NCBI GenBank assembly: GCA_020850635.1
Contig: JADZEH010000032.1
Span: forward strand, 11,421 to 75,420
DNA length: 64,000 nucleotides
Origin: Candidatus Doudnabacteria bacterium
GTDB lineage: Bacteria > Patescibacteriota > Doudnabacteria > UBA920
Direction: 5' to 3'
Position 1 is the first letter of the stretch. Each line of letters opens with the position of its first letter. The notes under the pieces were generated by a model. The model saw only the letters and a program-made list of their open reading frames with translations. It made no database searches and was not told the origin of the DNA. Positions 11,200 through 34,057 of the stretch are shown one piece after another. Made by a program: the position numbers and the translations under genes.

Positions 11200-11200
11200 A

Positions 11201-11226: not shown

Positions 11227-11231
11227 ATGTA

Positions 11232-16900: not shown

Positions 16901-19900
16901 GCTCAAACAATGGAATTTAGTTTTGATGGTAATACAAATCACAGAGATAAAGCTGTGAGTTATGAATATGATAACTTTCTTGGAAATACTACTAAGCGGA
17001 TAGATTGGGGTGAGGTTACTGGTTCAGCGGATGGGACGTTTACTGATGTAGGTAACGACAAAATAGTTACTGATTTAATATATGCCACTGGTAGTTCCCA
17101 CGACGTAGTAGAGATGATTTCCTCCGAAATATCTACCGACCAGTCTCTAAACAAAGTAAGCGAGACTCATTATTACTATGATAATTTGTCTCTAGGTTCG
17201 ATTGATAAAGGAAATGAAACAAAAGTAGAAAAGTGGAAATCTGGCTCTGATTATATTAACGAACAGAAGGCATATAACTCTCTTGGATTAGTAACGCAAA
17301 CAACTGATCCAAGAGGAAAGAATTTAGTTTATGCATATGATAGTCATAACCTGTTTCCAGCAACGGTTACAAATCATTTAAGTCAGGCAACGCAGTATCA
17401 ATACCATTATTTCTTTGGTAAGCCACTTCAAGTGACCGATGTAAATAACAGGGTATTTAAAACGCTTTATGATGGCGCGGGTCGTATAATTGAGCAAAGA
17501 GAGCCAGATTTAAGCAACCCTACAGCGTTGGTTTCTAAATTTGTAAACACTTATTCAACTTTTGCAGGTGGAGAATTGACACGTCATGTTGAGTACATGA
17601 GTGCTTCTGAATACATAGATTCGTATACTTACTCTGATGCCTTGGGACGTGAAGTTCAGCAACGACTAGCTACCGAAGATAGTGGTAACTATAGAGTAAA
17701 CGATAAAGCTTATGATGCGTTGGGACGTCTGCAAAAAGAGTCATCGCAGTATTTTTCATCCGGAGATGCTAAGACTGTAGCGACAACGACAACTAATCTT
17801 TACACAACCACCTCATATGATCCTCTTGATCGCGTTACTGCAATTGCCAATAATATTGGGATCATAACCAACACTTTCGATGATTGGACTACCACAGTAA
17901 CAGATGCAAGGGGTAAGGTTAAGGTTTTGTACAACGATGCTCGCGGTAATTTAGTTAAAGTTGATGAAAGTAATTCAGGTGCTGTATATACTACTAATTA
18001 CGAATACAATTCAAATAATAATCTTGTTAAAATCACAGATGCTTTGGGTAACGTCCGTAACTTTACCTATGATGCCTTAGGACGTCGTTTAACTGCTCAG
18101 GATTTACATGCCCCGACTGATGTTACTTTTGGTACTTGGACCTACACTTATGATAACAACGGTAATATTACGTCTGTTGTCGATCCTAATAATCAAACCA
18201 TTAATTATACCTACGACGATTTAGGTCGCCTACTTACAGAAGATTTTACTGGTCAGTCGGAAACAGAACTAACTTATACTTATGATTCAGGTACGGATGG
18301 TATGGGTCGGTTGTCTTCTGTAGTTTCTCCCGGAGCTAATACTAGTTACTTATACAACGCACATGGTGGCGTTAAGCAGGAGATAAAAACCATAAATTCC
18401 ACTTCGTATCAGACAGACTATACTTATGATCGTCAGGGAAATCAGCTAGAGATTACTAACCCAGATGGGTCGAAAGTTAAGTATACCTATAATTTCGGAG
18501 GACAACTGGAAACGGTGCAACGTAAAGAAACTACAGATACTTCATTTATAAATGTTGTAAATGATTTTGATTATGGTCCTCATGGAAAAATCACCCTTCA
18601 AGTAAACCAAAATGGTTCTCAAACCAGCAACATTTATGACGCTACTAAGCTTTATCGGCTATCCTCTAAAATAACTACTATTAGTGGCGGTTCTAAGGTG
18701 CAAGGACTTACATATAGTTATGATAATAATAGTAATATTACTCAGGCCGTAGATAATTCAAATACTAATTCAGTAAAAACTGTTGCATATACCTATGATG
18801 ATTTAAACCGGTTACTTAGTTCAACAGCAACAGGGGTTGCTGCTGGTCAGTCGACTTATACCGAAGTTTATAGTTACGATGCTATTGGAAACATTCTGAC
18901 TAAAGCTACTACCGTTGGGGGAGGGGCTACGATAAATACCACGTATTCTTATGCAGGAAGTGCAGGGTCAAGTTATGCAAATCCTCACGCAGTTACTAGT
19001 ATTTCCGATGGAATAAATACTACCAACTTTACGTATGACAATAATGGTAATATGATTGGAGAAGGAAGTAAGACCTTTGCGTTTGATTATAATAATCGTA
19101 TGACGCAGTCAGTTGGCGTAAGTGGTAGTGGTCCGACAACCGTTAGTTTTAATTCTCTAGCTGGCGATGGTGCTATTTATCATCAAAGTTCTTCTTGGGA
19201 TACCGCTCACGATGCTTCGGTGGGTTCGTATGCGTCGTTTACTGTTAATAATTTTTACGTTAGAGCTGGTAAGAATACAAGCACTTCAAATCGTATTGAG
19301 CGTGGGTTCTTACCTTTCGACACATCTTCGTTGCCAGACAGTGCAAATATTACGAGCGCAAAACTTAAAGTCTATGTTTATTCTAAATTGAATAATGATA
19401 ATGACGGTACAGATTGGGTAACTGTGACTCAAGCCACTCAACCCAGTACAACCGTTCTAACAACAGGGGACTACGATTTAGCAGGAAGTATAAATAATCC
19501 GGTTGAAGGGGTTGATGCAGGGCAGCGTAAAGATATTACCAATGTAAGTGTAGGTGGTTACTTAACCTTTGATCTAAATGTAACCGGCCGAGGTTGGGTA
19601 AACACCAGTGGTTCGACAAAGCTTAGTTTGCGTGAAGGCCATGACGCTACAGATAGCGCTTTTGTGGGAACTTCTGGTCAGTATAACGAGCTACGTATTA
19701 TATCATCAGAATATACGGGAACCAGCGTTGATCCAATTTTGGAAGTTACTTATGGCAGTGCCCCTCAGGTCGTTACAACAAATTATAAGTATGATCACAC
19801 TGGCCAGAGAGTTAGCTTATCCAATGGTACGAAAACGGATGTTTATCCGTCAGCTGACTACAATACGGACGGAACGACACCTGTAAAGCACATTTTTGGT

Positions 19901-20911
19901 GCTGGTCAGACCGTAGCTACAATAAAGGGTTCTGGTGTTGGCGCCACTGCGTACTTAGTTCACACTGATCACCTCACTGGGTCTAGTGCTGTAACTAACA
20001 GCGGCGGTACGCTTGAAGAATTGATGGATTACTTCCCATTTGGGAATATTCGTCTCGACCAAAAAGTAGGAAGTTTTGATGAACAGCGTAAATACACGGG
20101 GCATGAGTATGACGTGGATACCGGACTTTCCTATATGGAAGCGAGGTATTATAATCCAAATATCGGAAGATTCCTTAGCCAAGATCCGGTCTTTCTTGCT
20201 TTGGGAAATGAAGAGGGAGTACAACAGAAAACCCAACAAGAATTACAAGAAATATTATCTGATCCTCAGTTATTGAATAGTTATTCTTACGCACGAAATA
20301 ATCCGTTAGCCTACATTGACGAAAACGGAGAGTGGCCATCTTGGAGTCAAATCAAAACTGGCTTCCAGACAGCATGGAATGTAGCCAAGCCGTTTGTACA
20401 GAACAAGATCAACCAAGTACAAAACTCTTGGAACTCATACAATGCTTATATGGACACTCCCGAGGCGCAGCAGAAGTCTCGAGATGCAGCAATGGGTGGT
20501 ATGGCTTACCTTGGACCTATTGGCGGAACTGATAGATACTTTGGATTCGGAGTAGGAAGTATTAATTCTGTAGGTAGTGGCGTGAACCTAACGTCCAGAG
20601 GAGCACTCCATATACAGAAGGGTCATACTTTATCTGGCCAAGCGCCGGGTAATAATAAAAGTTACTTCTTTAATGATGTTGATTATAAAGGTATAATAAC
20701 TAAGTATGGCAATCAAGCTAAGGGTGCAATTCAGGGCAATGGCAATGTGCAAAGAATTCTTGATATGGGCCGTCCAGTAGGATGGGATGCTACTACCGGT
20801 GGAGCAACTTCATTTATGACTATTATTACCGATAAAGCAGGTACTGTAATTACAAGCCATCCTGGCTTACCAACAACAATCAAAGCTATAGTTAAAACCA
20901 TTAAAAAGTAG
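13973..20911 (+). CDS. RHS/YD-repeat polymorphic toxin (TcB/TcC-like), 2312 aa, secreted
   Basis: Signal peptide, then an acidic Pro/Glu-rich linker. An SpvB-like N-domain follows (YEYPIVMPEGRLGMTPAVSLKYNSQ). Several FG-GAP/VCBS-like Asp-rich repeats come next (DINGDKYPDLL, DINEDGKNDIVF, DLDADGY..DVNNDGLKDY, DVNGDGLLDY). A long YD-repeat shell contains many YxYDxxGRL units (YTYDDLGRLL, YDALGRL, YTYDDLNRLL). A non-YD domain of about 170 aa is inserted at about aa 1640-1800 (...YNELRIISSEY..., DNRLRE-like). The RHS core is YTGHEYDVDTGLSYMEARYYNPNIGRFLSQDPV...YSYARNNPLAYIDENGE. A C-terminal extension of about 190 aa, Cys-free, is of unknown family. Confidence 0.9.
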   Translation: MKRTQYLGLRRLVVSFLVFLVIVMPLRPVFAQEVEASVPVTTEPVQQEPQAISEPEPTSMADETPIPTEQADELGTDKTEAPIGDEDPVSEEAVVKEDEPKPEEEVAKIFGGTQGVGLQFKIPSEPQNSVDESTGALIYEYPIVMPEGRLGMTPAVSLKYNSQNITKVDSIVGLGWELTIPYIQRERAKGVEGIYTKANFVTSFSGNLVPTTDISSSPYTVYYSEVDDGSFQKHTFNSDNTWTMTDKSGRVYTFGATAASRQDNPVDTSQVYKWMISKISDVHGNEIQYSYTKDNGQIYPSQIVYTYHSTSPAIHNVSFTYNSPSSYGATTYNAAFPVVTSKVLATIDVTTTAINGVSTNSYSLVNTNAQFIKQKLVTRIDRSYTSTITESVPYSESTSFSYSTKTPGWQQGTHSLEGYLVRNSDYIYKDIFTADFDANGFTDVLISHHDIPSQKYNRLMMNNGSTFTESSSAWSLPTHDLSSNAFIADINGDKYPDLLPRQSDPNPVYLNTGSGFSVDNSNNWKISTYVPEALICGANVGDSNSFDTNSFLHDINEDGKNDIVFFGGSSDFRVFLNNGNGFTLSNNYTFTPQSGANFTIPTVCTGDLDADGYQTLIDVNNDGLKDYFHVTHGTYLNTGSGFAYAASYQIDTAEMDRTGLGDVNGDGLLDYIGFKWTSGGNYCARLLFNDGNGFKQINPTNYPTNCDNSGVWDFSNLSYTGGNSSFFGTLMDLTADGLPDIVGRFSSYDIRGKVRAVNDGVSSWVNNSNAGDQWVDVIAPSYGKYFDINSDGVLDFITPLTSWGYGTMPASMTYMGKPSIPNRLTQITNRLGAQTVVDFDTAPTDLYDRDSAPMPVVKKITTQNLGSGQPDMVTQYDYEKGHYSTNPLTSQVKFAGFSKVTATESGIDLTPLRVTDTYFHQGDNSDSGNSEYQDHISKIGKAYRIEIKDGSGNLYSKTLNTWEHDQIYEGRDFVKLAQTMEFSFDGNTNHRDKAVSYEYDNFLGNTTKRIDWGEVTGSADGTFTDVGNDKIVTDLIYATGSSHDVVEMISSEISTDQSLNKVSETHYYYDNLSLGSIDKGNETKVEKWKSGSDYINEQKAYNSLGLVTQTTDPRGKNLVYAYDSHNLFPATVTNHLSQATQYQYHYFFGKPLQVTDVNNRVFKTLYDGAGRIIEQREPDLSNPTALVSKFVNTYSTFAGGELTRHVEYMSASEYIDSYTYSDALGREVQQRLATEDSGNYRVNDKAYDALGRLQKESSQYFSSGDAKTVATTTTNLYTTTSYDPLDRVTAIANNIGIITNTFDDWTTTVTDARGKVKVLYNDARGNLVKVDESNSGAVYTTNYEYNSNNNLVKITDALGNVRNFTYDALGRRLTAQDLHAPTDVTFGTWTYTYDNNGNITSVVDPNNQTINYTYDDLGRLLTEDFTGQSETELTYTYDSGTDGMGRLSSVVSPGANTSYLYNAHGGVKQEIKTINSTSYQTDYTYDRQGNQLEITNPDGSKVKYTYNFGGQLETVQRKETTDTSFINVVNDFDYGPHGKITLQVNQNGSQTSNIYDATKLYRLSSKITTISGGSKVQGLTYSYDNNSNITQAVDNSNTNSVKTVAYTYDDLNRLLSSTATGVAAGQSTYTEVYSYDAIGNILTKATTVGGGATINTTYSYAGSAGSSYANPHAVTSISDGINTTNFTYDNNGNMIGEGSKTFAFDYNNRMTQSVGVSGSGPTTVSFNSLAGDGAIYHQSSSWDTAHDASVGSYASFTVNNFYVRAGKNTSTSNRIERGFLPFDTSSLPDSANITSAKLKVYVYSKLNNDNDGTDWVTVTQATQPSTTVLTTGDYDLAGSINNPVEGVDAGQRKDITNVSVGGYLTFDLNVTGRGWVNTSGSTKLSLREGHDATDSAFVGTSGQYNELRIISSEYTGTSVDPILEVTYGSAPQVVTTNYKYDHTGQRVSLSNGTKTDVYPSADYNTDGTTPVKHIFGAGQTVATIKGSGVGATAYLVHTDHLTGSSAVTNSGGTLEELMDYFPFGNIRLDQKVGSFDEQRKYTGHEYDVDTGLSYMEARYYNPNIGRFLSQDPVFLALGNEEGVQQKTQQELQEILSDPQLLNSYSYARNNPLAYIDENGEWPSWSQIKTGFQTAWNVAKPFVQNKINQVQNSWNSYNAYMDTPEAQQKSRDAAMGGMAYLGPIGGTDRYFGFGVGSINSVGSGVNLTSRGALHIQKGHTLSGQAPGNNKSYFFNDVDYKGIITKYGNQAKGAIQGNGNVQRILDMGRPVGWDATTGGATSFMTIITDKAGTVITSHPGLPTTIKAIVKTIKK

Positions 20912-20914
20912 TAT

Positions 20915-21226
20915 ATGCAACATATAGGAATTGAAATTGATAATGAGACATTTAGCAAAGAAAAAAGTAGTGAGAATAACTTTGCTAAGGTATTAGGGTA
21001 TGTGTGGGAGAATACTCAGAAAGAAGATTATCCGTGGATATGGGGCATAGATGCTTATGGTTTAACAGTATTTAATATTCAGCAAACCCCAAATCTCGTA
21101 AACGAGTTATCAAAACTGAAAGATAAAGTGCAAGAAGAAGATATTAAAGCAGATATTCAAAGTTTAATAGACTTTATTACAGAGAATATGGAGCAGCACT
21201 TATATTTAAAGTTTATTGGAGATTAA
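20915..21226 (+). CDS. putative immunity protein for the RHS C-terminal toxin
   Basis: 103-aa acidic protein. It starts 4 nt after the RHS stop and has no signal peptide. This is the usual position of the cognate immunity gene. Confidence 0.5.
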   Translation: MQHIGIEIDNETFSKEKSSENNFAKVLGYVWENTQKEDYPWIWGIDAYGLTVFNIQQTPNLVNELSKLKDKVQEEDIKADIQSLIDFITENMEQHLYLKFIGD

Positions 21227-21294
21227 TAGATTATAGATTGGTAAAGCAAACCACTCCGCACTATGTGCGGAGTGGTTTGACTCATGCAGAGCTT

Positions 21295-21678
21295 ATGGAT
21301 AAAAAGAAATATGTAATTGATGGAAATAATTTCGACACCTTAGAAGGGTTTTATGATGAGGTAAGTAATGTCTTAATCCCCGGTGCTTCTTGGGGAAGAA
21401 ACTTTGATGCATTTAATGACATATTATATGGTGGATTTGGTACCCCAGATGAAGGCTTTATCCTAATATGGAAAAATGTAAAGAGATCAAAGTCTGACTT
21501 GGGAGATACCGCAACCCTTAAATGGTTAGAAGGAAAATTGCATAATATTCATCCTTCAAATATACCGATATGGAAACAAAGAATAGCTATGCATAAATTA
21601 AGGTACGGCGAAACACTCTTTATGATACTAGTAGATATTATCTTAAACCATGAAGATATAGAGCTGAGATTTCAATAA
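21295..21678 (+). CDS. barstar-like immunity protein (barnase-inhibitor family)
   Basis: The tracked ORF begins at 21238, but a perfect hairpin (CCACTCCGCACTATGTGCGGAGTGG, 21251-21277) occupies its first codons, so the ATG at 21295 (MDKKKYVIDG) is the likely start. The block YVIDGNNFDTLEGFYDEVSNVLIPGASWGRNFDAFNDIL...ILIW parallels the barstar core (INGEQI..ISDLHQTL...LPEYYGENLDALWDCL...LVLEW). Confidence 0.6.
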   Translation: MDKKKYVIDGNNFDTLEGFYDEVSNVLIPGASWGRNFDAFNDILYGGFGTPDEGFILIWKNVKRSKSDLGDTATLKWLEGKLHNIHPSNIPIWKQRIAMHKLRYGETLFMILVDIILNHEDIELRFQ

Positions 21679-21681: not shown

Positions 21682-21715
21682 AAAAACAGCTATCGTGATG
21701 TAATAGCTGTTTTTA
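21682..21715. terminator. bidirectional intrinsic terminator / left edge of the recombinase element
   Basis: AAAAACAGCTAT-CGTGATGTA-ATAGCTGTTTTT hairpin with A and T runs on both sides. It lies between the convergent barstar-like and recombinase genes. Confidence 0.55.
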
Positions 21716-23410
21716 ATTTGATTTTTTGCGGCCCATCCATTTATTCCCTCGTTTTATTTTACCTTCAATTTTGAATTGAATTGCGCTAGCATCAGATGTC
21801 TGATCGGGATCGTCGTATGCTTTTAGTTTTATTGGGATTGAGCCAATTACTTTCACTTCAGTGTTGTTATAAATTACTTCTTTAATGTAATCTTTTAAAA
21901 ATTCACGAGTCTTGTCGCTGTTGTTACAAAGATTTAATCTTGATCTTACTGATTCGCAATATCTTTTTATACTAGCTTCTATAACTTCTTCTTTATGAAG
22001 ACTAGGCACCTGATTAAGCAGCTTTGCTTTATTGACATTGTGATTAGTAAGTTCACTATCATAGCTTAAGCACCTTTTTACATATTCGGCTCTATTAATT
22101 TTACCGCTGGCATATTGATCAATTGTTTGTTTTCTTTTAGTAGCAAGATCAGCTATTCGCTTTCCATTCTCTTTCAGCTTAGATTCAATTTGTTTTCGGT
22201 TTTTCAATTGACCTACATTAGTAGTTAGGCATAACTCTAGTTTGCTCGAGTCAGTCATGCTTTCTTCGATCATATTCATTACGCAAGTGTCTAGTAGCTG
22301 AGTTAGTACCTCGGGATTGTTGCATCTCACCAACCCAGTATTCGCAGTTTGTGAATGCATTCGTTGTAAAGAAATTTGGCTACATCTGTAAGCAGTCTTA
22401 TGAAATATTTTATTTGGATCCGCAACTCTGCGCTTGTCTTTATAAGTCCGGAAGTATGAGGTGAAAAATCTACCACATATTCCGCAGTTAACTAAACCTG
22501 AAAGTAACTGTGTTTGCTTCGGGTTTCTATACTGTTCGCTGTTATATTTAATTCTTGCTTGTACCTTATTAAAAAGTTCCTGCGAGATGATCGCAGGAAC
22601 TTTCACTGGTATCCATTCAGATTTATTTTTGTAAACCTTCTTGCCGTACTTCAGTCCTCTTAGGGGACTATTTGGCTCTTTCACATAAGATCTCGTATTA
22701 TAGTATTTAATTCCGGTATAAGTGTGGTTTTGCAAAATGTTTTTTAGTTTAGAGGTATCCCAAAGTTTTCGACCCATCTTAGTAATAGCACCAATATTTT
22801 CCAGAGTTCGCACTAATTTTGCCCAACTAAATCCAGCAGCGTAGCTTTTGAAAATATATCTAACTGTTTTCGCTTCCTTTTCATTGATTATAAATTTACC
22901 TGGCTGAGTGTCGGTTCTGCGAATATATTCATACCCTAAAGCATTGTAACCGTAGTTTAATGGGATGCCTTGCCGTAGCTTGTGTAGCTTTCCTCGCTGG
23001 CTGCGTTCAATAATTTTAGCTCTTTCTAATTCTGATACTGCACCAAGTACTGTTAAGGTAAACTTGTTCTCAGGGTTATGGATGTAATCTTTGCCATTAA
23101 TTATTATTTGCTTTTTGTATTTGAGTATTTCCGCGATAATTAAGTTTTGGTAAGTAACATCTCTGGCTATGCGATCTGAATTTAAGAAGTAGATAGTATC
23201 AAACAGGGGAGTCTTAAGATCACTGCGTAGCTGATCAAGTGCAGGTCTGTCGATCTTGGCTCCACTATACCCATCGTCAATGTATTCTTTCGTTAACACA
23301 TCGCCACTTTTAGAAACTTGCTTTTTAAGTTCCTCAATTTGGCTTTCAATGGTTCGCTCTTTTTCTTGCAGAGCTGTACTTACTCTGGCATAGATCGCTG
23401 CTTTCTTCAT
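21713..23410 (-). CDS. large serine recombinase (resolvase/invertase catalytic domain + recombinase domain + zinc ribbon)
   Basis: 565 aa. The N-terminus MKKAAIYARVSTALQ carries the catalytic Ser. A long recombinase domain and a Cys-rich ribbon (CGICGRFF...C) follow. It overlaps the upstream paralogue by 4 nt (ATGA). Confidence 0.85.
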   Translation of the reverse strand: MKKAAIYARVSTALQEKERTIESQIEELKKQVSKSGDVLTKEYIDDGYSGAKIDRPALDQLRSDLKTPLFDTIYFLNSDRIARDVTYQNLIIAEILKYKKQIIINGKDYIHNPENKFTLTVLGAVSELERAKIIERSQRGKLHKLRQGIPLNYGYNALGYEYIRRTDTQPGKFIINEKEAKTVRYIFKSYAAGFSWAKLVRTLENIGAITKMGRKLWDTSKLKNILQNHTYTGIKYYNTRSYVKEPNSPLRGLKYGKKVYKNKSEWIPVKVPAIISQELFNKVQARIKYNSEQYRNPKQTQLLSGLVNCGICGRFFTSYFRTYKDKRRVADPNKIFHKTAYRCSQISLQRMHSQTANTGLVRCNNPEVLTQLLDTCVMNMIEESMTDSSKLELCLTTNVGQLKNRKQIESKLKENGKRIADLATKRKQTIDQYASGKINRAEYVKRCLSYDSELTNHNVNKAKLLNQVPSLHKEEVIEASIKRYCESVRSRLNLCNNSDKTREFLKDYIKEVIYNNTEVKVIGSIPIKLKAYDDPDQTSDASAIQFKIEGKIKRGNKWMGRKKSN

Positions 23411-25119
23411 AATTTTTCAATTACTAATTTCCCATATTCCTTCTTTGGAATTTCTTTGCCGTTAATGGTTTGATCATCTGTATTTAATTGCTTCACTCTA
23501 TTCAGTGCTTCTATTCGGTTGATTACTTGTTCAATCTTGAATTCAATTGGAACTGTTTCATCTTTTGAGACTTCAATCGCAATAGCACCTATCAGTTTGA
23601 TTTTGTCATCGGATTTGCCGTTTTTGCGGTATTCCACCTTGGCGATGTAGTCCAGTAAGAATTGTCGTTTAGAATTAAAATCTCCACATCTAGTAAATTG
23701 AGACTTTAAAGTTTTACAGTATTGTTCAGTACTCGCTTTGATAACTTCCGGTTTTTGAAATAGAGGTAGATATTTTAATAATTCAGCTCGCTTAGTTTGC
23801 AGGTTGCCAACTTCTTCATCATAGATAGAGATTCTCTTAACATATTCTTCTCGTTCCAAATCCCCAAAAGAGTAGAGATCAATTATCCGTTCTTTTTGTT
23901 TGCTAACTGTTTTGATTTTACTCTCCACATCTTTAATCTGTTTATCTAGTTTAGATTGATTCTTTTGATTATTGCCTAAGCTAATATAATTTCGGAGCTC
24001 ATTAGGTTTAAGTAATATACTCGTGACCATTTCAACTACCGTTGAATCTAGTACCCTGGTATCAATCTCAGGGTTATGGTTTATGCCTTTAGTTCTGCAT
24101 CGGTATACCGCTTTTTGATATAGCTTAATTCCAGACTTTCTTTCGACTTTGTAATACCTTCGATAGGCGAAGCATCTCAGTTTGCATTTACCGCAGAACA
24201 CTAGATTAGATAGTAGCTGGGTTCGCTGTGCATTTCTAAAACATTCATAGTTATATTTCATCCTTGCTTGCACTTGGTCAAATAATTTCTTTGGTACAAT
24301 TTGCGGTATTTTTATTCCAACCCATTCCGAGCGGTCTCTGTGGATTTTCTTGCCGCGCTTAGTTCTGCGGATTACATTTCCAACCGCATTCGTATCCGTC
24401 ATGGTATTGAAATACTTTGTGCCTGTATAGGTCTCGTTTTGTAGAATGTATTTTAGATGCCCATCACCAAGTTTGTTTCTTTGCTCTTTGGCTAGACCCT
24501 TCGTTTTTAGCTGTCTCGCTAATTCTTTCAGTCCAATATTTCCTTTTGCATACGTTTCAAAAATATACCTTACTATTTTTGCCTCGTGTTCGTTGATTGC
24601 ATAAGAGGGGGAAGAGTCTGTTGTTCTTGGCGTGTATATATAACCATAAATATGACAACCGTTGCTTAACAGATATCCTTGTTTTAATCTGTGCTGCGAT
24701 CCGCGCCTTGTTCTCTCTAACGTTTTAGCTCGCTCCAATTCTGATACCGCACCTAATACCGTGAGTGTGAATTTGTTTTCTGGGTTATTTACATAATCCT
24801 TCCCATTGATAATGATCTGCTTTTTGTAATGCAGAAATTCGCTGATAATAATATTCTGGTAAGTTACATCTCTGGCAATGCGATCAGCATTCAAAATGTA
24901 GATAGTCTGAAATCCCAGAGTTCTAATATCTCTCCTCAGGTCATTCATAGCTGGTCTATCCAGCAAGCATCCGCTGAATCCATCGTCGATGTATTTTTTT
25001 ACCAAAACATCCCCAGAAGCTCTAATTTGCCTTTTAAGCTCCGATATTTGGCTTTCTATAGTTCGCTCCTTCTGCTGGGCATCGGAGCTTACTCTTGCAT
25101 AAAATACTGCTCTTTTCAT
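23407..25119 (-). CDS. large serine recombinase (paralogue of the downstream gene)
   Basis: 570 aa with N-terminus MKRAVFYARVSSDAQ. It is about 60-65% identical to the 21713-23410 product over the first 150 aa (…IARDVTYQN.II.E.L.YKKQIIINGKDY.NPENKFTLTVLGAVSELERAK…). This is a tandem pair reminiscent of CcrA/CcrB-type two-recombinase elements. Confidence 0.85.
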   Translation of the reverse strand: MKRAVFYARVSSDAQQKERTIESQISELKRQIRASGDVLVKKYIDDGFSGCLLDRPAMNDLRRDIRTLGFQTIYILNADRIARDVTYQNIIISEFLHYKKQIIINGKDYVNNPENKFTLTVLGAVSELERAKTLERTRRGSQHRLKQGYLLSNGCHIYGYIYTPRTTDSSPSYAINEHEAKIVRYIFETYAKGNIGLKELARQLKTKGLAKEQRNKLGDGHLKYILQNETYTGTKYFNTMTDTNAVGNVIRRTKRGKKIHRDRSEWVGIKIPQIVPKKLFDQVQARMKYNYECFRNAQRTQLLSNLVFCGKCKLRCFAYRRYYKVERKSGIKLYQKAVYRCRTKGINHNPEIDTRVLDSTVVEMVTSILLKPNELRNYISLGNNQKNQSKLDKQIKDVESKIKTVSKQKERIIDLYSFGDLEREEYVKRISIYDEEVGNLQTKRAELLKYLPLFQKPEVIKASTEQYCKTLKSQFTRCGDFNSKRQFLLDYIAKVEYRKNGKSDDKIKLIGAIAIEVSKDETVPIEFKIEQVINRIEALNRVKQLNTDDQTINGKEIPKKEYGKLVIEKL

Positions 25120-25388
25120 ACCAACATTGATGACGCAGCTTCTTGATCTAGTCTAGGCCAGCTGTTGGTAACTTTCGACTTTACTTTAACTCCAACCCAA
25201 GCTAGGATGGACTGGATTATGCGCCCTAAATATCGTATAATTGCATTAACAACTTAATGCCTAACCCCTCAGGAATGAGGATATGGCGCTAAAACCTATC
25301 ACAGATACTGAACCCTCCGTTCAGCTACTGTGATAGGTCGTATCTGGAAACAGGTACGGGACCGCAAGGTCCATGCTGGCGGGGGGCT

Positions 25389-25997
25389 TTGTGTTTTCTG
25401 CCAGCAAGAAAGCCTATCACAAACATGGACAATCAATCTGCCTCACCAGAGGCAAAACAACCTTCCATTCTATGGAAGCGTATTAAGACTATCGCTAAAG
25501 GTATAGCTATTTTCATAGTCGTACTTATAGTTGCAGCTGTGTGGCAAAGTATGAATCAACCACAGTCACAAACGCAGTCGCAAGGCACGGCTCAACAAGC
25601 AGAAGAACCAAAAGAAGAACAAACTCCTGCTAAAGAACCTCCCGTTGAACCATTCAATATTGAAGTTACCAGTCAGATAGTCAAAAAAGTAGACGGCAAA
25701 TACCGCTACTTCTTTGACATCAGAAACAAAGACACTAAGAACTTTGAGGGAGCAGTGACTATTAATTTGCTAAGAGCAAATAACAGTAGGCTTGGCTCAG
25801 ATACGTTTACTACTACAAGAGCTATTGAACCTAATCTTGGTTTTGCTCAATACATTGAAATTAATTCAGGACCAATGCCGATGTTTGATTCAGAATCAGC
25901 AATTACTAAATTCACATACGAAGTGAAGATAGATAAGAAATCCGTGAAGAGCGGAGAAGGAGTTATTACAGATAAGTTTGAGAACTTAGATTATTAA
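25389..25997 (+). CDS. hypothetical secreted/membrane-anchored protein
   Basis: 202 aa. The likely start is the internal Met (MDNQSAS, about 25431). It has one N-terminal TM helix, then a Gln/Glu/Pro-rich linker and a beta-rich domain. Confidence 0.45.
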   Translation: MCFLPARKPITNMDNQSASPEAKQPSILWKRIKTIAKGIAIFIVVLIVAAVWQSMNQPQSQTQSQGTAQQAEEPKEEQTPAKEPPVEPFNIEVTSQIVKKVDGKYRYFFDIRNKDTKNFEGAVTINLLRANNSRLGSDTFTTTRAIEPNLGFAQYIEINSGPMPMFDSESAITKFTYEVKIDKKSVKSGEGVITDKFENLDY

Positions 25998-26560
25998 ATT
26001 GCATCTTCTTCCGTTTCTAGGCCACCAGACTCTAAATAACCTTTAACTGGTTTATCTGAGTATCTATCTTCATCATCTACATAATCAGGGTGAGTTGTAT
26101 CGTACCTATGAACTACCGCATTTGCAGCTCTAGTGAATAAATCAAAGACATTATCAATTTGCTCTTTAACTTCTTCTGTAACCTCTGGATGTTTGGCCTG
26201 TACCTTGAATTCATTAATCACAGTCCTGCGATCAGAAAATTTTGGATCACGACTCTTAAGCCAAAATATGGCAGCCGTCATATTGCCTTTACTCATTTCC
26301 TCAATGAGTTTTGATTGAGCAAGTTCATTAATAACCATAGAACCTTCACGGACTGCTTCTGTCGCAACTCTATCAAACTCAGCATCTTCCTCGCACCAGC
26401 GATAGTATGTAGACCTAGCTATGCCAACTTTCTTCACTGCTACTTGCACCACAGGCATCTTTAAAAGCACTTCTACTAATTGAAGTTTTTGTTCAGCGAT
26501 ACGCTTGGCAATCTTTTCTAGTTCCTTTTTATTCTTTGGAGTTTTGCTGGTCTTTACCAT
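25994..26560 (-). CDS. HTH DNA-binding protein, possibly a phage terminase small-subunit-like regulator
   Basis: 188 aa with the helix-turn-helix segment VGIARSTYYRWCEED and a charged N-terminus. Its context next to a phage-type methyltransferase suggests phage origin. Confidence 0.45.
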   Translation of the reverse strand: MVKTSKTPKNKKELEKIAKRIAEQKLQLVEVLLKMPVVQVAVKKVGIARSTYYRWCEEDAEFDRVATEAVREGSMVINELAQSKLIEEMSKGNMTAAIFWLKSRDPKFSDRRTVINEFKVQAKHPEVTEEVKEQIDNVFDLFTRAANAVVHRYDTTHPDYVDDEDRYSDKPVKGYLESGGLETEEDAI

Positions 26561-27893
26561 AGTCTTTATCGCTACTGATCTTAACCGCTTTAGAACCAGT
26601 TAACTTTTCCCAGCGTTTGATAATCACTTCAGTGTAAGTGGGAACTTTCTCCATTGTGTAGCAACGGCGAGCCATTTTCTCACAGGCTATGAGTGTACTG
26701 CCAGAGCCGCCATATGGTTCGACTACAAGCCCTCCGCGTTCAGTGAGTACTTTGATGTAGGGAATAAGGATTTCCACTGGTTTAGTACCAAAGATAATAC
26801 CTTGACCAGAAGACTTCTCGTCACTGGCTTTGTATTCAATAAAGTCAGTAGGACAAATCTTTTTACCTTTCTCATAGTTCTCCCAGTGCGGTTTTCCTGA
26901 AATGGCAAATAAAGCTGTTTCGTATTCTTCTTGAAGCAAAGCTTCTTCCTCAGCAGTATTAAGATGGGCATCGCCAGAAGTGCCAACCATAGCAATATCA
27001 TGCTTGTTAAAGAATTTATGTTTAGCTGCAAATCCTTGAGTACGATTGGGCAAGTGCCAGACAATCATGTTTTTCACTTTCCAATACTTTTCCATCTCAG
27101 ACCAAATGGTGCGAAGATTTTTCCAGTTCTCATATACGATGATACTGAAATCTTCTTTGGCGAATTTAGCAATGTTGGTCATCCAAAGCTCGGTGAAGTT
27201 ATCTGGCAATTCATCTGTTTCCATATACCTACGGTCGCGCTTCAAACCAAAGCCACTCTTGTCCTGACCTTTCTTTTTACCTTTCAGGTAATCCAAGATG
27301 TATGGCGGATCTGTTAAACACAAATCTGCTTTCTCGTTGTTCATCAAGCGGAGAAAATCTTTTTCAATGGTAGAGTCGCCGCACATCAGGCGGTGTTTGC
27401 CTAATTGATAAATATCTCCCTTTTGAACTTTCACTTCAGTGATATCCAACTTCTTGAGCTCTTTTTCCAGATCAAAGACTTCTGGATTTTCCTCAACAGC
27501 AAAGATCTCATCAAGTTCCTCGCTGATAAAGCCGATATCGCTCAGTAGCGATTCGTCAAAAGCAGAGAGGAGTTCCAAATCAAACTCACCACGGTTTTTA
27601 TTTAAGCGCAGGTTAAGTTCTTTTTCTTTTGTTTCATCAGGAATATTCAGATACACCACTGGTGCTTCTGTTTTCCCAAGTTCTTTTAATGCCGCAATGC
27701 GCATGTGTCCGCCGATGAGAATGTTCTTGCGGGTTTCTGCACTGTTCACGAGCAGTGCTTCTACTGTACCGAAGCGCTTAATGCTTTCCTTAAGCTGACT
27801 AAGTGCTTCTTTTGACCACTTGCGTGGGTTGTAGGTGGCAGTAATGAGCTCCTCAATTGGCACATACTGCACCTGAAGTTTTTCGTTTTTCAT
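26529..27893 (-). CDS. ParB-like nuclease domain fused to an N6-adenine/N4-cytosine DNA methyltransferase
   Basis: 454 aa. The N-terminal ParB/Srx-like segment is IEELITATYNPRKWSKEALSQLKESIKRFGTVEALLVN. The MTase motif IV is DPPY (LCLTDPPYILDY), and the C-terminal SAM-binding region is EPYGGSGST. This architecture is common in phage and plasmid orphan methyltransferases. Confidence 0.8.
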   Translation of the reverse strand: MKNEKLQVQYVPIEELITATYNPRKWSKEALSQLKESIKRFGTVEALLVNSAETRKNILIGGHMRIAALKELGKTEAPVVYLNIPDETKEKELNLRLNKNRGEFDLELLSAFDESLLSDIGFISEELDEIFAVEENPEVFDLEKELKKLDITEVKVQKGDIYQLGKHRLMCGDSTIEKDFLRLMNNEKADLCLTDPPYILDYLKGKKKGQDKSGFGLKRDRRYMETDELPDNFTELWMTNIAKFAKEDFSIIVYENWKNLRTIWSEMEKYWKVKNMIVWHLPNRTQGFAAKHKFFNKHDIAMVGTSGDAHLNTAEEEALLQEEYETALFAISGKPHWENYEKGKKICPTDFIEYKASDEKSSGQGIIFGTKPVEILIPYIKVLTERGGLVVEPYGGSGSTLIACEKMARRCYTMEKVPTYTEVIIKRWEKLTGSKAVKISSDKDYGKDQQNSKE

Positions 27894-28122: not shown

Positions 28123-31100
28123 TTGAACCCTGATCAAGAACAAAATATTGGCTCTAATGAGCCAACCCCAGTTGAAGATTTGCTATCTTCTGCTTCAGAT
28201 AAGCAGAAGAAAATTAGAGATGCCTTAATTAACCTTGACCCTGAGTTTGGAAAAAGATTGTCCCAGGTTTATGAGGGTTTAATCTTAGGATTTAATTATA
28301 AAGTTAATCCTGAGAGAATACCACAAGTTTGTCATTCTGCAAGAGAGTTATCGTCGATTCTGCCCAGGTATTTTCCTGGACTTCCAATATTAGAGCGCGT
28401 TGATAATAGAAAAAATCCTGATGAACCTAGACAAAGAGAATTACTGAAAGGGATTTTAGGCAATCATCCTGAGCGAAGCGCTTTGCCTGAATACCTCCAA
28501 GAGACATTTGTAGATGAGTGGATGAATGTTCATGACTATTTTAATAAATATTCAAAACACGATGATATCAAAAATAAAAATGGTTTAGAAATTTCAGAAC
28601 AAGAATTTGAAGCTAATGTTTGGAAGTTTGAGGACCTGCTTTACAGAACTTTAGTTGAGATACCATTCTTTGATTCGCTGGATGAGATCGAATCATTGTT
28701 AAAAATAGAAAACCCTACTGATTCTAATGTAGCAACATTATCACAGCTCATCGCTCAGCCTCAACACAACAGATATTTTTTTGAAAAATGTAACAACCCA
28801 GAATGGTTGGCACCTCTTAATAAAAGAGGGGCCTTTTCTAAACCCCAAGAGCCCCTTAAGCAGGATGGGTATGTACGTTTTATAGGATGGCCTGAATCGC
28901 AGTACTTAGTTCGTATTGTAGACAGGAAATCAAACGAGGTCTACGAGATCATAAAAACCCTAGATTCAGAAAATCAATCTGTCTTAGATGATTTTATTGA
29001 TGCAGCACTTAAGTCTCCAGTAGAAATCGCTGCTAAGTACGTGGAGTTAATAATAAAGAAGAAGTGGTTACAGAATCCGTATAATCTTTTACTGCCAGAC
29101 AAGGTCGCGGAATTAATGGAAAAGTTAGCAGCGGCTGGAAAAGTTGACGAAGCAATAAAATTAGCTAGGGTATTATTTGATGTCCATATTGTAAAACCAG
29201 TCAGTGAAACAAACGAAGAAATTCCATTGTCATGGATTCGACCCGAAGCGAAGCCTTACTTTGATGAGTGGAGATACAAAGAAGTAATTACCAAGAAAAC
29301 AAAAGAGATTGCTAAAGCAAGCCCAGTTTTATTATTTCAAACTTTGGCTACAATCCTTCATCAAGCTTTAGATTTGGAAAAAAGAGAAAATGTATCTGAT
29401 GATTTTTATGAGTATTCCCACATTTGGAGACCAAACCTCGGGCATACTAGAAACCCTAATAGAGAAGATGCTAAAAACGTTTTAATCGACGGTTTGATTG
29501 AGTTAATCGAAAATAATAAAAATGACACTACAGTTATGGAAGGATTTGTGGAAATTTTAAGTAAACATAATCAAGGTTTCTTCAGAAGGTTGGAGATGTT
29601 TCTTCACCTGAATGCAACTGAGCCGCAAACCGAAGCAATTGAAAAATTGCTTACCGAAAAAAAGATTATTACTTCGTATAATCTAAGACGTGAATATTTG
29701 CCATTGTTAGAGAAGTTCTTCTCAACAATAACCTCTCAAGGACAAAATACAATTCTTGAAGCCATAGATTCAGGCCCCAATCTAACAAAAACAGATGATA
29801 CTACAACTGAGCAATTTGATGCTATGAATAACCGATGGCGTAGTATGTATTATGGGTCAATAAAACAGGTATTGCTTTCACCGCACAAAGAAAAGTATGA
29901 AGAATTGCAGATATTAACTGGTCCAGTAGTAATTGATGATGGAGAGCTCAAAGTTACCGGTGGGTGGATTGGGGACGAAAGTCCTTTGTCTATGGAAGAT
30001 ATGAAAAGTATGAAACCAGATAAGGTAATTGATTACCTGAGAGATTTCAAGGATTCAGGCGACTTTTCTGAAAGAATGTCTTCCTCGGGGTTAGGCATTA
30101 TTTTTGGAAATGTGGTTGCAGAAAATCCAGAAACGTACATTTCAGTTGCCGGTGATTTACTAAGTAACAAATTAAAACCACTGTACATCTATCATTTTTT
30201 GAATGGCATTAAGCAAACCCTAAAAGAACCTAGGGTTTTAGATTGGAAACCTGTTATTGATTTGTGCTACTCAATTATCTTCGTTAAGTCAGGGGAATCG
30301 CTTACGAAACCTGGTAATGACAGTGAACAAAATTGGGATTCTGTGCATATGGCTATTGCTGATCTTTTAGGAGCAGCTTTGGGTGATAAAAATACTTCCG
30401 TTTCAGTAGACTTACAAAGTCCTATTTGGGATATTATTTTAGAATTGACCAAAAATGAAGAACCTACTATTGAAGATGAAGAACGGGATAATGGGGGAAA
30501 CCTTGATCCTATGACTCTCTCAATCAATACTGTGAGAGGAGAGGCATTGCATGCAGTGGTTAATTATGCACTGTGGTTAGATAGGTTTAGCGTAGATATT
30601 AAAAAACTGGGATCGAAAATTCCTAAAATTGTCGAGGATGTATTAGATTTTCATTTAGACACTAACAATGATCCTTCGCTAGCAATTAGATCTGTTTACG
30701 GATGGAGACTGCCCAACCTGTCTTACCTAAGTATGGAATGGGTTAAGTCTAGAAAAGATAAAATTTTCCCAAAAGAAAAAGGATCAGAAAAATTATTTTT
30801 ATCTGCTTTTGAAAGTTATCTGACTAATAATGTGTACCATGATCTGTTCGATCTGTTTATCGAAGAGTATCGTATTGGTATATCTCTGCTTGGAACGGTC
30901 GAAAAGGAAGGATATCATGGCGCTGATATAAACGAAAAATTACCTCAACATTTAATGATTACTTATGTGCATGATGCTAAGCACGATGATCTTATTCGTC
31001 ATTTTTTTGATGTGGCGCCTGTTAAGTCTAGAATACAAGCTATTAATTTTGTAGGAAGAGTAATCTTTGGAGAACTATCAAAATTAGATAATCCTAAATA

Positions 31101-31521
31101 CGCAATTGAACGGTCACTAAAATTATGGGATGATAGACTATCCGCAACAAATGCAAATATTGCAGAAGAGTTACAAGAATTTGGGTGGTGGTTTAAGCGT
31201 AGCCCTTTCTCTCGTCAGGATAACATTACCAGACTTGTAAAAACTCTAGAGCTCACCAATGGTTTAATTGATGCTCCTTATGAGGTGGCAGAAGAACTTC
31301 AGGAGTACTCAGCAACCTTTCCTCTGGAAGTAATTACGGCCTTGTCATTAATTGCGCATGGCATAAAAGAAGGTCATGAGATTTCTTATAAAATGAATGA
31401 GTACAGAGAAATTATTACTAAAGTAAAAGAATCTGGTAATACAGAAGCAGTCAACAAAGCAAATGAATTAATAAACTATCTTGGTTCCAGAGGCTTCATT
31501 GATTTTAGGGATTTACTCTAA
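28123..31521 (+). CDS. large hypothetical protein (1132 aa), predicted soluble and helical, no recognisable domain
   Basis: The long ORF has a TTG start, and the first in-frame ATG is more than 100 codons in. It has no signal peptide or TM segment, and no Walker, HExxH, DEAD, GxSxG or Cys-cluster motif. It is rich in Leu, Glu and Lys with heptad-like stretches, consistent with HEAT/ARM or TPR-like solenoids. It is translationally coupled to the next gene (TAATG). Confidence 0.6.
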   Translation: MNPDQEQNIGSNEPTPVEDLLSSASDKQKKIRDALINLDPEFGKRLSQVYEGLILGFNYKVNPERIPQVCHSARELSSILPRYFPGLPILERVDNRKNPDEPRQRELLKGILGNHPERSALPEYLQETFVDEWMNVHDYFNKYSKHDDIKNKNGLEISEQEFEANVWKFEDLLYRTLVEIPFFDSLDEIESLLKIENPTDSNVATLSQLIAQPQHNRYFFEKCNNPEWLAPLNKRGAFSKPQEPLKQDGYVRFIGWPESQYLVRIVDRKSNEVYEIIKTLDSENQSVLDDFIDAALKSPVEIAAKYVELIIKKKWLQNPYNLLLPDKVAELMEKLAAAGKVDEAIKLARVLFDVHIVKPVSETNEEIPLSWIRPEAKPYFDEWRYKEVITKKTKEIAKASPVLLFQTLATILHQALDLEKRENVSDDFYEYSHIWRPNLGHTRNPNREDAKNVLIDGLIELIENNKNDTTVMEGFVEILSKHNQGFFRRLEMFLHLNATEPQTEAIEKLLTEKKIITSYNLRREYLPLLEKFFSTITSQGQNTILEAIDSGPNLTKTDDTTTEQFDAMNNRWRSMYYGSIKQVLLSPHKEKYEELQILTGPVVIDDGELKVTGGWIGDESPLSMEDMKSMKPDKVIDYLRDFKDSGDFSERMSSSGLGIIFGNVVAENPETYISVAGDLLSNKLKPLYIYHFLNGIKQTLKEPRVLDWKPVIDLCYSIIFVKSGESLTKPGNDSEQNWDSVHMAIADLLGAALGDKNTSVSVDLQSPIWDIILELTKNEEPTIEDEERDNGGNLDPMTLSINTVRGEALHAVVNYALWLDRFSVDIKKLGSKIPKIVEDVLDFHLDTNNDPSLAIRSVYGWRLPNLSYLSMEWVKSRKDKIFPKEKGSEKLFLSAFESYLTNNVYHDLFDLFIEEYRIGISLLGTVEKEGYHGADINEKLPQHLMITYVHDAKHDDLIRHFFDVAPVKSRIQAINFVGRVIFGELSKLDNPKYAIERSLKLWDDRLSATNANIAEELQEFGWWFKRSPFSRQDNITRLVKTLELTNGLIDAPYEVAEELQEYSATFPLEVITALSLIAHGIKEGHEISYKMNEYREIITKVKESGNTEAVNKANELINYLGSRGFIDFRDLL

Positions 31522-32114
31522 TGCCACGGCAACAAGTTAAAGATATGTATATAGTACTTAAGGATTTTGAACCAATGGTAAAAGATCCGCGGTTCTTGAG
31601 GAATGGCCGTCCTATTCCTAACTTTTCTGTTTTACCTCGAGAGGCTTGGGCTAACTGGCTTTTGTGTGTGGTACTTAGAGATTTTTTTCAACATGATATT
31701 ACTTTCGCGGAAGATGATGAAACTGATGGAGTAATTTATGATAAGGATACTAACCAATGGTTTTTTACTGAACATGTCTGTGCGCTGCAAACTCCTGGAC
31801 CTCATGCTAGTCTAAAAGGCGAAGATCGGGTAATGTATGCAATACAACATAAAATAGATAGAGGTGTTGATTATGCTCGTGGAAAAAGGTTGGTTGTATT
31901 TATAGAAGATGCTGGTGAGTGGTTTCCTAATAGAGTAGGGAGGTCTATTCATGGAACGCATAGCTTTGATGCAGTGTACTGCATTGGTATTAGCTCGCTA
32001 ACAGATGATGGCTATACGTACTTCGTTACTCAGTTAGATCACCAAAATTCTCCAGCTTGGAAAGTTTTTATCAATATGGATTTCACTGATTGGCAAGTAA
32101 TCAGACTTCAATAA
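31521..32114 (+). CDS. hypothetical protein (197 aa), coupled to the upstream large protein
   Basis: Its start overlaps the stop of the 1132-aa ORF, and there is no recognisable motif. Confidence 0.5.
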   Translation: MPRQQVKDMYIVLKDFEPMVKDPRFLRNGRPIPNFSVLPREAWANWLLCVVLRDFFQHDITFAEDDETDGVIYDKDTNQWFFTEHVCALQTPGPHASLKGEDRVMYAIQHKIDRGVDYARGKRLVVFIEDAGEWFPNRVGRSIHGTHSFDAVYCIGISSLTDDGYTYFVTQLDHQNSPAWKVFINMDFTDWQVIRLQ

Positions 32115-32133
32115 TACTAAATTTTGATTCTAA

Positions 32134-32496
32134 ATGGACATTAATAGCTTATTAGATCAAATAATACATAATACAATATTAAATTTTTGGGCAATAATAA
32201 AAACAAGCTGGTCTTCACTTTGGCCTTATGTTTTAGGGCTTGCAGTACTTATACTTGGCGGTATAATTCTACAAATTATTATGCTACGCAGTGGTAGTCA
32301 TAATAAACTTTCTGCTGGTTTTAATAGTCTTGTTGGCAGCCTATTTTGGTTCATCTTCTTTGCCATCTTGTTAGGTATAGCTTACGTAGTATTTGGTCCT
32401 CAGGTTATTGATGAAATATGGTTCGGATTACTTAGCATGATCGCATTTTTTCTAGCAGGCGGGTTCCTCAGACTAATCGGCTTCTGGTATTATTAA
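32134..32496 (+). CDS. small integral membrane protein (3 TM)
   Basis: 120 aa and hydrophobic. It is the third gene of the cassette, 20 nt after the previous stop. Confidence 0.5.
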   Translation: MDINSLLDQIIHNTILNFWAIIKTSWSSLWPYVLGLAVLILGGIILQIIMLRSGSHNKLSAGFNSLVGSLFWFIFFAILLGIAYVVFGPQVIDEIWFGLLSMIAFFLAGGFLRLIGFWYY

Positions 32497-33585: not shown

Positions 33586-33586
33586 T

Positions 33587-33916: not shown

Positions 33917-34057
33917 TGATTGGATATAGTTAACCATAAAACAGGCCGTATGGCCTGTTTTAGTTTGCATCAAATAATAAAAGCCGCCGTGTCTATTTCT
34001 CCCGAGGGAAAATTAGAACACGGCGTTGTTCTGCTTGGTTCCCGAACAGTAGCGGGG

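Follow-up and report, generated by a model that had tools for sequence, protein, structure and literature searches.

What are the palindromes for that crowd the space between two recombinase genes and a short open reading frame (ORF) in the genome of a Candidatus Doudnabacteria bacterium? They lie in a stretch of 64,000 nucleotides of contig JADZEH010000032.1 (the window), and the first-pass annotation had read them as a candidate attachment (att) site of the neighboring large serine recombinases, with a structured 5′ leader or small RNA (sRNA) as its fallback. Our analysis identifies the feature at 25258-25372 as a new member of a known RNA family, LOOT (Rfam RF03000), and bears out the leader half of that fallback, through the Rfam match, the covariation of the helices and an ORF that follows on the same strand. 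Further conserved pairings outside the Rfam model suggest, as far as sequence comparison can tell, a predicted RNA switch and not a recombinase attachment site. We consider it probable that the region is the LOOT-headed 5′ leader of a cargo gene starting at ATG 25425, a cis-acting leader with several states, and that this unit belongs to a phage-like integrative element.

The assignment to the family is direct. A cmscan search against Rfam places a full-length LOOT RNA at 25258-25372 on the plus strand; it scores 83.6 bits, where the gathering score is 46.4 (E 1.3e-15), and its alignment covers the whole model (positions 1-121). The Rfam scan gives no second LOOT match in the 64 kb. The RNA of 25250-25440 folds to -80.7 kcal/mol, compared with -49.5 ± 4.1 for shuffled sequences (z = -7.6; 0 of 200 shuffles equal), and its minimum free energy (MFE) fold consists of the LOOT helices P1/P1a, P2/P2a, P3 and P4 and a 14-bp hairpin, P5, with terminal loops GGAA, GAAA and GCAA and a P2a loop CCUCC. 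The parts of the leader, all on the plus strand, are as follows.

25217-25241, plus strand: promoter-like region; the -10 box TATAAT (25236-25241) is the 3′ arm of the inverted repeat ATTATGCG-N9-CGTATAAT
25250-25259, plus strand: unpaired 5′ motif ACAACTTAAT, family consensus ACAAYTKAATA, outside the Rfam model
25258-25372, plus strand: LOOT core (Rfam RF03000, MFE fold)
25258-25261 with 25285-25288, plus strand: P1, with the receptor-like internal loop UAAC/UAU
25266-25271 with 25276-25281, plus strand: P1a, loop GGAA
Between P1 and P2, plus strand: J1/2 of the LOOT core, CUAAAA
25295-25305 (arm A), 25306-25326 (apical part) and 25327-25337 (arm B), plus strand: P2
25339-25346 with 25351-25358, plus strand: P3, loop GAAA
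25359-25363 with 25368-25372, plus strand: P4, loop GCAA
25313-25325, plus strand: X, CCCTCCGTTCAGC, the loop and 3′ side of the apical P2 hairpin, complementary to Y
25375-25386, plus strand: Y, GCTGGCGGGGGG, directly after P4, able to pair with X at long range or with X′ in hairpin P5
25374-25406, plus strand: P5 (Y with X′), 25374-25387 with 25393-25406 including G-U pairs, in the MFE fold
25388-25398, plus strand: U-rich tract after Y, TTTGTGTTTTC, family consensus GCUUUUUGU
25409-25421, plus strand: A′, AAAGCCTATCACA, which repeats the 5′ arm of P2 together with the A-rich prefix, ends 3 nt before ATG 25425 and is able to pair with arm B
25425-25997, plus strand: cargo ORF of 190 amino acids with an N-terminal hydrophobic segment

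The palindromes that had drawn attention to the region are present and have their places in this structure: CCTCAGGAATGAGG at 25267-25280 is P1a, the nested palindrome at 25296-25337 is P2 (an inverted-repeat search gives arms 25294-25313 and 25319-25338, 85% complementary), GGACCGCAAGGTCC at 25359-25372 is P4, and GCTGGC-N19-GCCAGC at 25375-25405 is part of hairpin P5 in the 3′ extension. What had been listed as an extra half-site, CCTATCACA at 25413-25421, marks a conserved alternative pairing beside the start codon. The TATAAT box was also correctly noticed, and lies at 25236-25241, slightly to the right of the approximate position 25230 given for it. To these the fold adds two elements that had escaped notice, namely the P3 hairpin CGTATCTG-GAAA-CAGGTACG at 25339-25358 and the outer pairing TGCC/GGCG that forms P1. 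A gene had been assumed to begin at 25389; an ORF in the same frame exists, with ATG 25425 the likelier start than TTG 25389.

In its original description LOOT was reportedly known only from marine metagenomes, with its host unclassified and a guess that it acts in trans. In the literature searched, LOOT figures only as a metagenome-derived motif from one screen (Weinberg et al., 2017; PMC5737381), as an example family in Rfam papers (PMC7779021, where it is listed as metagenome-based, and PMC11701678), and as a structure of about 43 base pairs in six helices (PMC7657543). No function for LOOT is published in the literature searched. The window copy has all the helices of the Rfam family; it differs in that the Rfam model ends at P4, while the window and about 120 relatives add the 5′ motif and a 3′ extension (Y, the U tract, X′ and A′) that runs up to the start codon.

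Relatives were collected with a strict pattern taken from the Rfam consensus, which matches once in the window, in three IMG/VR contigs (all Rfam-confirmed LOOT) and in at least 120 stretches of a species-representative genome collection; locus counts throughout are counts among these listed matches. All 23 pattern-selected relatives that were checked (L001-L003, L004-L023) score above the gathering threshold, the 20 genome loci at 53.8-100 bits (20/20). The genome loci come almost entirely from metagenome-assembled genomes (MAGs) of Patescibacteria, the Candidate Phyla Radiation (CPR), with few other labels, and include Saccharibacteria, Paceibacterota, Levy-, Gottesman- and Nomurabacteria and others; many are deep within contigs of 100 kb to 1.2 Mb. 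One further locus, L135, escaped the pattern and was picked up by the covariance model alone; it has a -10 box, the ACAACTGAATA motif, the X:Y pairing and a U tract, and its A′ copy lies 3 nt short of the ATG. A blastn search of 25100-25450 against GenBank phages gave no match. For detection only, we also built a covariance model, R1, which scores the window LOOT at 82.5 bits; it holds only 23 base pairs because RNAalifold lost P2 and P4 on the MAFFT alignment. In a MAFFT alignment of 86 leaders (A1), P1 is 99.6% paired and P3 98.8% paired with both-side changes at all 8 of its pairs, and the pairing signal of P2 and P4 is diluted through misalignment. Folding and a covariation search across homologous loci had been put forward as a check on the first-pass annotation, and both come out in favor of an RNA, with structure beyond that of shuffled sequences and helices that covary.

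The core also carries the elements of a possible tertiary contact. GAAA tetraloops and their 11-nt receptor (CCUAAG...UAUGG) are familiar from group I introns, RNase P and the c-di-GMP-I riboswitch. The window has CCUAAC...UAUGG in P1 and a GAAA loop in P3 of the same RNA, and LOOT in general has CCUAA(C/A)...(U/C)AUGG around the internal loop of P1; it departs from the classic receptor in that the closing G-U is replaced by a covarying C/U or A/C. The base after CCUAA and the base before AUGG are A/C in 62 loci, C/U in 52 and otherwise in 6. The conservation of CCUAA, AUGG and GAAA themselves rests on the Rfam consensus, where the GAAA of P3 is in upper case, because the search pattern forced those sequences. 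Docking of the tetraloop, within a molecule or between molecules, would be consistent with this covariation.

Beyond P4 there are two sets of competing pairings, of which X:Y is the more widespread. In the window this duplex has an energy of -23.1 kcal/mol for the extended regions and -19.6 for its 12-pair core. Over 122 loci its median is -24.2 kcal/mol, against -12.5 with the Y of other loci, and -18 kcal/mol or lower is reached in 89% of loci, compared with 17% when Y is swapped between loci and 1% when it is shuffled. On A1, 85% of cells are paired (slid controls 38-62%), both-side changes occur at 15 of 17 pairs, and the 218 double-change cells, where 78 are expected, are matched in none of 500 shuffles. 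Partners track each other between classes of leader, CCUGGUGGCGGG with CCCGUCAUCAGG, CUGGCGGCGAGCU with AGCUCGUCGUCAG and CCGACGUGAGACC with GGUCUCAUGAUCGG. The stem, rich in G+C, ends directly at the U-rich tract: at least 5 T follow within 9 nt of the last X:Y pair in 83% of 108 loci, and columns T133 and T135 of A1, in the tract, are nearly invariant. Arm B, P3 and P4 make up the roughly 55 nt enclosed between its strands. Judged by eye, the 5′ ACAAYU motif could form only 3-4 bp with UUGU of the U tract.

The alternative partner of Y is X′. A P5-like hairpin of -12 kcal/mol or lower occurs in 60% of 122 loci, as against 29% with permuted and 14% with shuffled controls. P5 was considered as a terminator and rejected, having no U tail after it and no plus-strand terminator in the scan. 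The idea that X:Y is a by-product of a duplication of P2a as P5 was likewise discarded: Y mostly pairs with the 5′ arm and loop of P2a too, and loci without X′ retain X:Y.

The second set of pairings involves A′, which in the window is a 12/13 direct copy of 25291-25303 (10/11 against the P2 arm); 25413-25421 is exactly complementary to 25329-25337. Copies of the P2 5′ arm with at least 9/11 nt occur in 40 of 121 loci (3.5% in permuted controls), involve more than 20 different arm sequences, carry an AAAAYC prefix and in nearly all 40 loci end 0-6 nt before the ATG. A duplex of -16 kcal/mol or lower between the start region and LOOT, mostly on arm B, is found in 42% of loci against 14.5% with permutation. 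Since A′ is present in about a third of the loci and P5 in about 60%, parts of this platform are optional. Many loci without A′ have an RTTAYCAA-like motif after P5 and before the start codon (A1 columns ~223-232; for example L023, L039, L110 and L111).

In the window the competing helices have near-equal energies: -16.3 kcal/mol for A:B and -15.3 for B:A′, -19.6 for X:Y and -20.4 for Y:X′. The full leader, at -80.7 kcal/mol, has P2 and P5 formed and the start region free. When arm A is blocked, the MFE fold becomes a four-way junction at -75.1 kcal/mol in which P3, P4 and P5 are enclosed by B:A′ and 25411-25421 is covered. For a nascent RNA that ends in the U tract, the P2 fold has -63.5 kcal/mol and the X:Y three-way junction -57.3. 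When only nested structures are allowed, the X:Y fold is optimal for 56% of 108 nascent RNAs and no more than 5 kcal/mol above the MFE for 93%. Among the 32 full leaders of the class with A′, 17 contain A:B in their MFE fold and 11 contain B:A′ (L005, L002 and L036 are examples of the latter).

The position of LOOT relative to promoter and gene is as regular as its structure. Of the 90 loci with the ACAAYT motif, 69 have a TAnnnT box 3-18 nt before it, and this box usually forms the 3′ side of a covarying inverted repeat whose loop is A/T-rich. In the window, the box at 25236-25241 was missed by a consensus promoter scan because its -35 element is weak. The ACAAYTKAATA motif itself is found no more than 45 nt upstream of LOOT in 90 of 122 loci, 6-9 nt beyond the -10 box, and probably marks the 5′ end of the transcript. 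Six loci (L003, L023, L055, L070, L110 and L114) have an extra hairpin between this motif and P1, outside the Rfam model, with a GNRA tetraloop in all but L055. Where an extra GNRA hairpin precedes P1, the motif keeps its place relative to the -10 box. Farther upstream, about 36 nt before the -10 box, some 25 loci share a conserved motif TAAGCTARGGTAC (in the window CCAAGCTAGGATGGAC, region 25197-25241), and the same position reads GCGATACAAT in loci with an adjacent recombinase. This motif and the inverted repeat at the -10 box could be an operator or promoter element of the cassette.

Downstream, every one of the 114 loci with enough sequence has an ORF on the strand of LOOT, and the first ATG to open such an ORF comes a median of 71 nt after the end of the pattern (interquartile range 62-77). 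A consensus scan of the plus strand finds no terminator-like site between LOOT and ATG 25425. Motifs resembling a Shine-Dalgarno (SD) sequence occur in 1 of 32 loci of the A′ class and in 11 of 59 of the class without the copy. The products are diverse: clustering by sequence sorts the 114 cargo proteins into 94 groups, a transmembrane-like segment is present at the N-terminus of 65 of them, and those with Pfam matches include DNA methyltransferases, secreted staphylococcal-type nucleases, a HARE-HTH protein, zinc-ribbon membrane proteins and a trypsin-like peptidase. They are unrelated to one another and have no common function. The 190-residue cargo protein of the window has no Pfam or PHROG match. 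Because variable ORFs follow on the same strand with few SD motifs, LOOT would appear to head a moron-like cargo cassette of a phage-like integrative element. Such a cassette resembles phage morons and lysogenic-conversion cassettes in placing an autonomous promoter and a gene between backbone genes of a temperate-phage-like element, and also in that the cargo is hypervariable and the cassette is present in some close relatives and not in others. To our knowledge, morons have no conserved complex RNA leader in common.

The backbone genes around the cassette are found next to it in the window.

21713-23410, minus strand: large serine recombinase gene, 565 amino acids (Pfam Resolvase, Recombinase and Zn_ribbon_recom)
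23407-25119, minus strand: large serine recombinase gene in tandem with the former, 570 amino acids (the same three Pfam domains)
25994-26560, minus strand: gene resembling a terminase small subunit (TerS; Pfam/PHROG), convergent with the LOOT-cargo unit
26529-27893, minus strand: ParB-N6/N4 DNA methyltransferase gene (Pfam/PHROG), convergent with the LOOT-cargo unit

The two recombinase genes overlap by 4 nt and are transcribed away from LOOT; they look like one operon, and most related LOOT loci have a single recombinase of about 440 amino acids. The palindromes had been placed 5′ of a recombinase operon, and they do lie 141 nt upstream of a recombinase start codon, in what is, because both recombinase genes are on the minus strand, a divergent intergenic region. 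A tblastn search with window and viral-locus proteins over 123 loci, with blocks not centered on LOOT counted in, finds a large serine recombinase in 54, a ParB-N6/N4 methyltransferase in 23 (about 10 of them at 60-68% identity to that of the window), a small terminase in about 20 and a large terminase (TerL) in 10. The window's ParB-methylase is 60-68% identical to those beside LOOT in CPR genomes and 65% identical to those of viral loci L001 and L002. In the commonest layout an opposite-strand recombinase gene starting 130-290 nt upstream is followed by LOOT, a variable ORF and packaging genes, the last as a convergent TerL-TerS-ParB-methylase group or as TerS-ParB-methylase, the arrangement of the window.

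LOOT can also be missing. The single ParB-methylase sequence as query gave only distant relatives; an alignment of ParB-methylases used as the query yielded 80 IMG/VR loci, which were then searched with R1. Of the 6 close relatives (59-70% identity), 3 contain LOOT, and none of the 74 distant ones does. Two close relatives, L130 and L134, share the layout ParB-methyltransferase-TerS-TerL-[opposite-strand ORF]-recombinase, with only 45-80 nt between ORF and recombinase gene and no LOOT even with the search filters off. Their ORFs between TerL and recombinase, at 10580-11410 (minus strand) in L130 and 3303-4187 (minus strand) in L134, have no LOOT leader. These slots hold cargo without LOOT; therefore LOOT is an optional part of the cargo slot.

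The window itself is cellular chromosome, and cellular genes flank the element on both sides (6-phosphogluconate dehydrogenase, O-antigen ligase, ABC-F, P-type ATPases and a SpoU methylase). Within the element no large terminase, capsid or tail genes are recognizable, and no Pfam or PHROG match was obtained for a 1132-residue ORF or for the ORFs at 31521-32114, 32134-32496 and 33920-34591, all in 28123-34591 on the plus strand. A 273-residue ORF at 32764-33585 has weak PHROG matches only. The element may be a degraded prophage or a satellite-like element. A tRNA-adjacent boundary was considered as a general feature of these elements and dropped, with a tRNA gene no more than 200 nt upstream of LOOT only in L014 and L029 of 120 loci. 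The tRNA genes of these two (L014 4244-4319, L029 2830-2903) lie about 150 nt upstream of LOOT and may be boundary copies.

Our structural and comparative data suggest a model for the leader. LOOT would be transcribed rightwards from the promoter with the -10 box at 25236-25241, and the core would be followed by an extension resembling an expression platform, with four strands that each have two pairing options. Arm B could pair with arm A, giving the LOOT fold, or with A′, which abuts the start codon; Y could pair with X at the top of P2, or with the downstream mimic X′ to form P5; and the X:Y helix with the U-rich tract would be terminator-like. In the LOOT fold P2 would be closed, with the GAAA loop of P3 presumably docked on the CCUAA(C/A)...(U/C)AUGG loop of P1, X sequestered and A′ free, which would permit read-through and leave the SD-less ORF translatable. 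With P2 open, X:Y would cause premature termination, or the B:A′ four-way junction would mask the start region, or both, and the gene would be off. Candidate triggers are a signal of phage or host state, a protein, Mg2+ or temperature. Going further, we tentatively propose that LOOT may be a sensor-like domain within a new class of RNA switch with several states, braced by a tetraloop and its receptor and carried on temperate-phage-like elements of Patescibacteria, which gates termination and translation initiation of whatever cargo lies downstream (defense, surface or nuclease) in response to a cellular or phage cue; it would then be a portable, gene-independent cassette, as opposed to a metabolite-specific riboswitch or a trans-acting sRNA.

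Several points weigh against a switch of this kind. As a long local hairpin, P2 should be the first to fold on the emerging transcript and would then need to be opened, and no obvious ligand pocket is seen in LOOT. A′ and P5 are each restricted to part of the loci. The stretch of about 55 nt enclosed by X:Y is atypical for intrinsic terminators, and a consensus terminator scan of the plus strand finds nothing. The folding tools ignore pseudoknots and tertiary contacts, and A:B might coexist with the 12-bp X:Y as a pseudoknot. The alignment A1 is imperfect in stems of variable length, the search pattern biases the sample by forcing CCUAA, AUGG and GAAA, and the genome sample is almost entirely from one clade. 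Rfam, finally, types LOOT as Gene; sRNA.

That typing bears on the first of the other explanations, in which LOOT is a free-standing, trans-acting sRNA that ends at the U tract after Y and would recognize its targets with the 5′ motif ACAAYUKAAUA or arm B as seed, and in which the ORF is a mere neighbor expressed by leak-through or on its own. The terminator-like combination of X:Y and U-rich tract, predicted as the optimal nascent fold in 56% of loci, the conserved single-stranded 5′ motif and the lack of an A′ copy in two thirds of the loci all fit this reading. It does not account for the ORF that all 114 loci have on the same strand, within a narrow range of distances, nor for the 40-60 nt from U tract to ATG, too short for a separate promoter, of which none is seen; the ORFs lack SD sequences of their own, and A′ and X′, beyond the proposed 3′ end, still track the locus-specific A and X. 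We regard it as unlikely. The same tracking counts against a static leader, in which LOOT and Y form a pseudoknotted domain braced by the tetraloop and receptor and act constitutively, for example as a 5′ stabilizer against exonucleases or as an enhancer of translation for SD-less cargo. Here the conserved GNRA loops, the receptor-like loop and the long helices would be architecture rather than a ligand pocket, X:Y is nearly universal while P5 and A′ are optional, and the pseudoknot mentioned above would let A:B and X:Y coexist; with cargo genes of unrelated function, a shared metabolite is not to be expected. In a static fold, however, the mimics A′ and X′ have no role and yet covary with A and X, the competing helices of the window are matched within about 1 kcal/mol, and X:Y in many loci spans the whole apex of P2 with linkers of 0-2 nt, which is hard to reconcile with a closed A:B. 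This makes the static leader distinctly improbable.

The palindromes could also be sites on DNA, either attP, attL or attR of the adjacent serine recombinases, the CCTATCACAG palindrome having been singled out in this sense, or operators for a DNA-binding protein. The short distance to the recombinase gene speaks for such sites, as do the 14 loci whose divergent neighbor is a recombinase gene and the inverted repeat over the -10 box just upstream of LOOT, a possible operator; imperfect inverted repeats near a recombinase gene are also what attP and attB of large serine recombinases of the phiC31 and Bxb1 type look like. The CCTATCACAG palindrome is, however, helix P2 of LOOT and covaries with G-U on one strand only. 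Across the helices there are compensatory changes and many G-U pairs, each of them an A-C mismatch if read on the opposite strand, so the constraint acts on the plus-strand RNA, and GNRA loops and a receptor-like loop are motifs of RNA. In contrast to attP and attB, LOOT has five hairpins and RNA-type covariation, does not lie at the element boundary and is not tied to a recombinase: where 2 kb or more of upstream sequence is available (83 loci), 14 loci have a divergent recombinase no farther than 700 nt away and 69 have none adjacent. Recombinase, LOOT, TerS and ParB-methylase are contiguous in the window and in integrated copies inside CPR contigs of about 100-590 kb (L044, on a 591-kb contig, L036, L107, L084 and L112), so the crossover point is elsewhere than LOOT. 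Homologous elements had been named as the place to look for the palindromes, and L130 and L134 keep the recombinase layout and cargo slot without LOOT; the recombinase evidently does not need LOOT DNA. An attachment site or operator is thus hardly credible as the explanation, and the palindromes are uninformative on where the recombinases act.

Like translational ON riboswitches, such as the add adenine riboswitch, and transcription attenuators, such as terminator/antiterminator leaders, the multi-state leader that we favor has a helix strand that can re-pair with a mimic beside the start codon and a second strand that is either part of an internal helix or of a stem followed by a U tract, with energy-matched competing helices. 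A structured 5′ domain at a constrained same-strand distance from the ORF is present, as in riboswitches and attenuators, and so, in silico, are mutually exclusive helices. Unlike riboswitches, LOOT has a switching helix (11 bp and an apical hairpin) far longer than a riboswitch P1, has no evident binding pocket, and precedes genes that are mutually unrelated, the 94 clusters in 114 loci showing no functional coherence. Unlike the stem of an attenuator, the putative terminator stem of LOOT encloses two hairpins.

Some further observations concern the surroundings of the cassette. Inside the plus-strand cargo ORF there are minus-strand terminator-like hairpins with T tails, at 25437-25478 and 25693-25706, which might block transcription of the ParB-methylase and TerS genes from running antisense through LOOT into the recombinase genes. 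On the other side of the recombinase genes, 13973-21678 on the plus strand holds a 2312-residue ORF, a 103-residue ORF and a barstar-like (barnase-inhibitor) gene at 21238-21678, the end of which is 35 nt from a recombinase stop codon; this group looks like a polymorphic toxin-immunity module. In L094, the ParB-methyltransferase homologue at 5511-6866 (minus strand), 68% identical to that of the window, has two in-frame stops, indicating either a pseudogene or an alternative genetic code in that MAG.

LOOT has been catalogued since 2017 as an orphan RNA with strong covariation, and its host range, its mobile-element context and a 3′ extension with two mimics are not described in the literature searched. 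What is new here is the setting in phage-like elements of Patescibacteria, the position of LOOT as the invariable leader of a hypervariable cargo gene, and a 3′ extension with two mimic-strand pairs. These features make the function of LOOT testable, through concrete compensatory mutations and predictions of transcript ends. If the switch model is true, the mobile elements of the CPR, in which gene regulation and lysogeny are hardly known, would have in LOOT a regulatory RNA of their own, and LOOT would exemplify a gene-independent, portable RNA controller.

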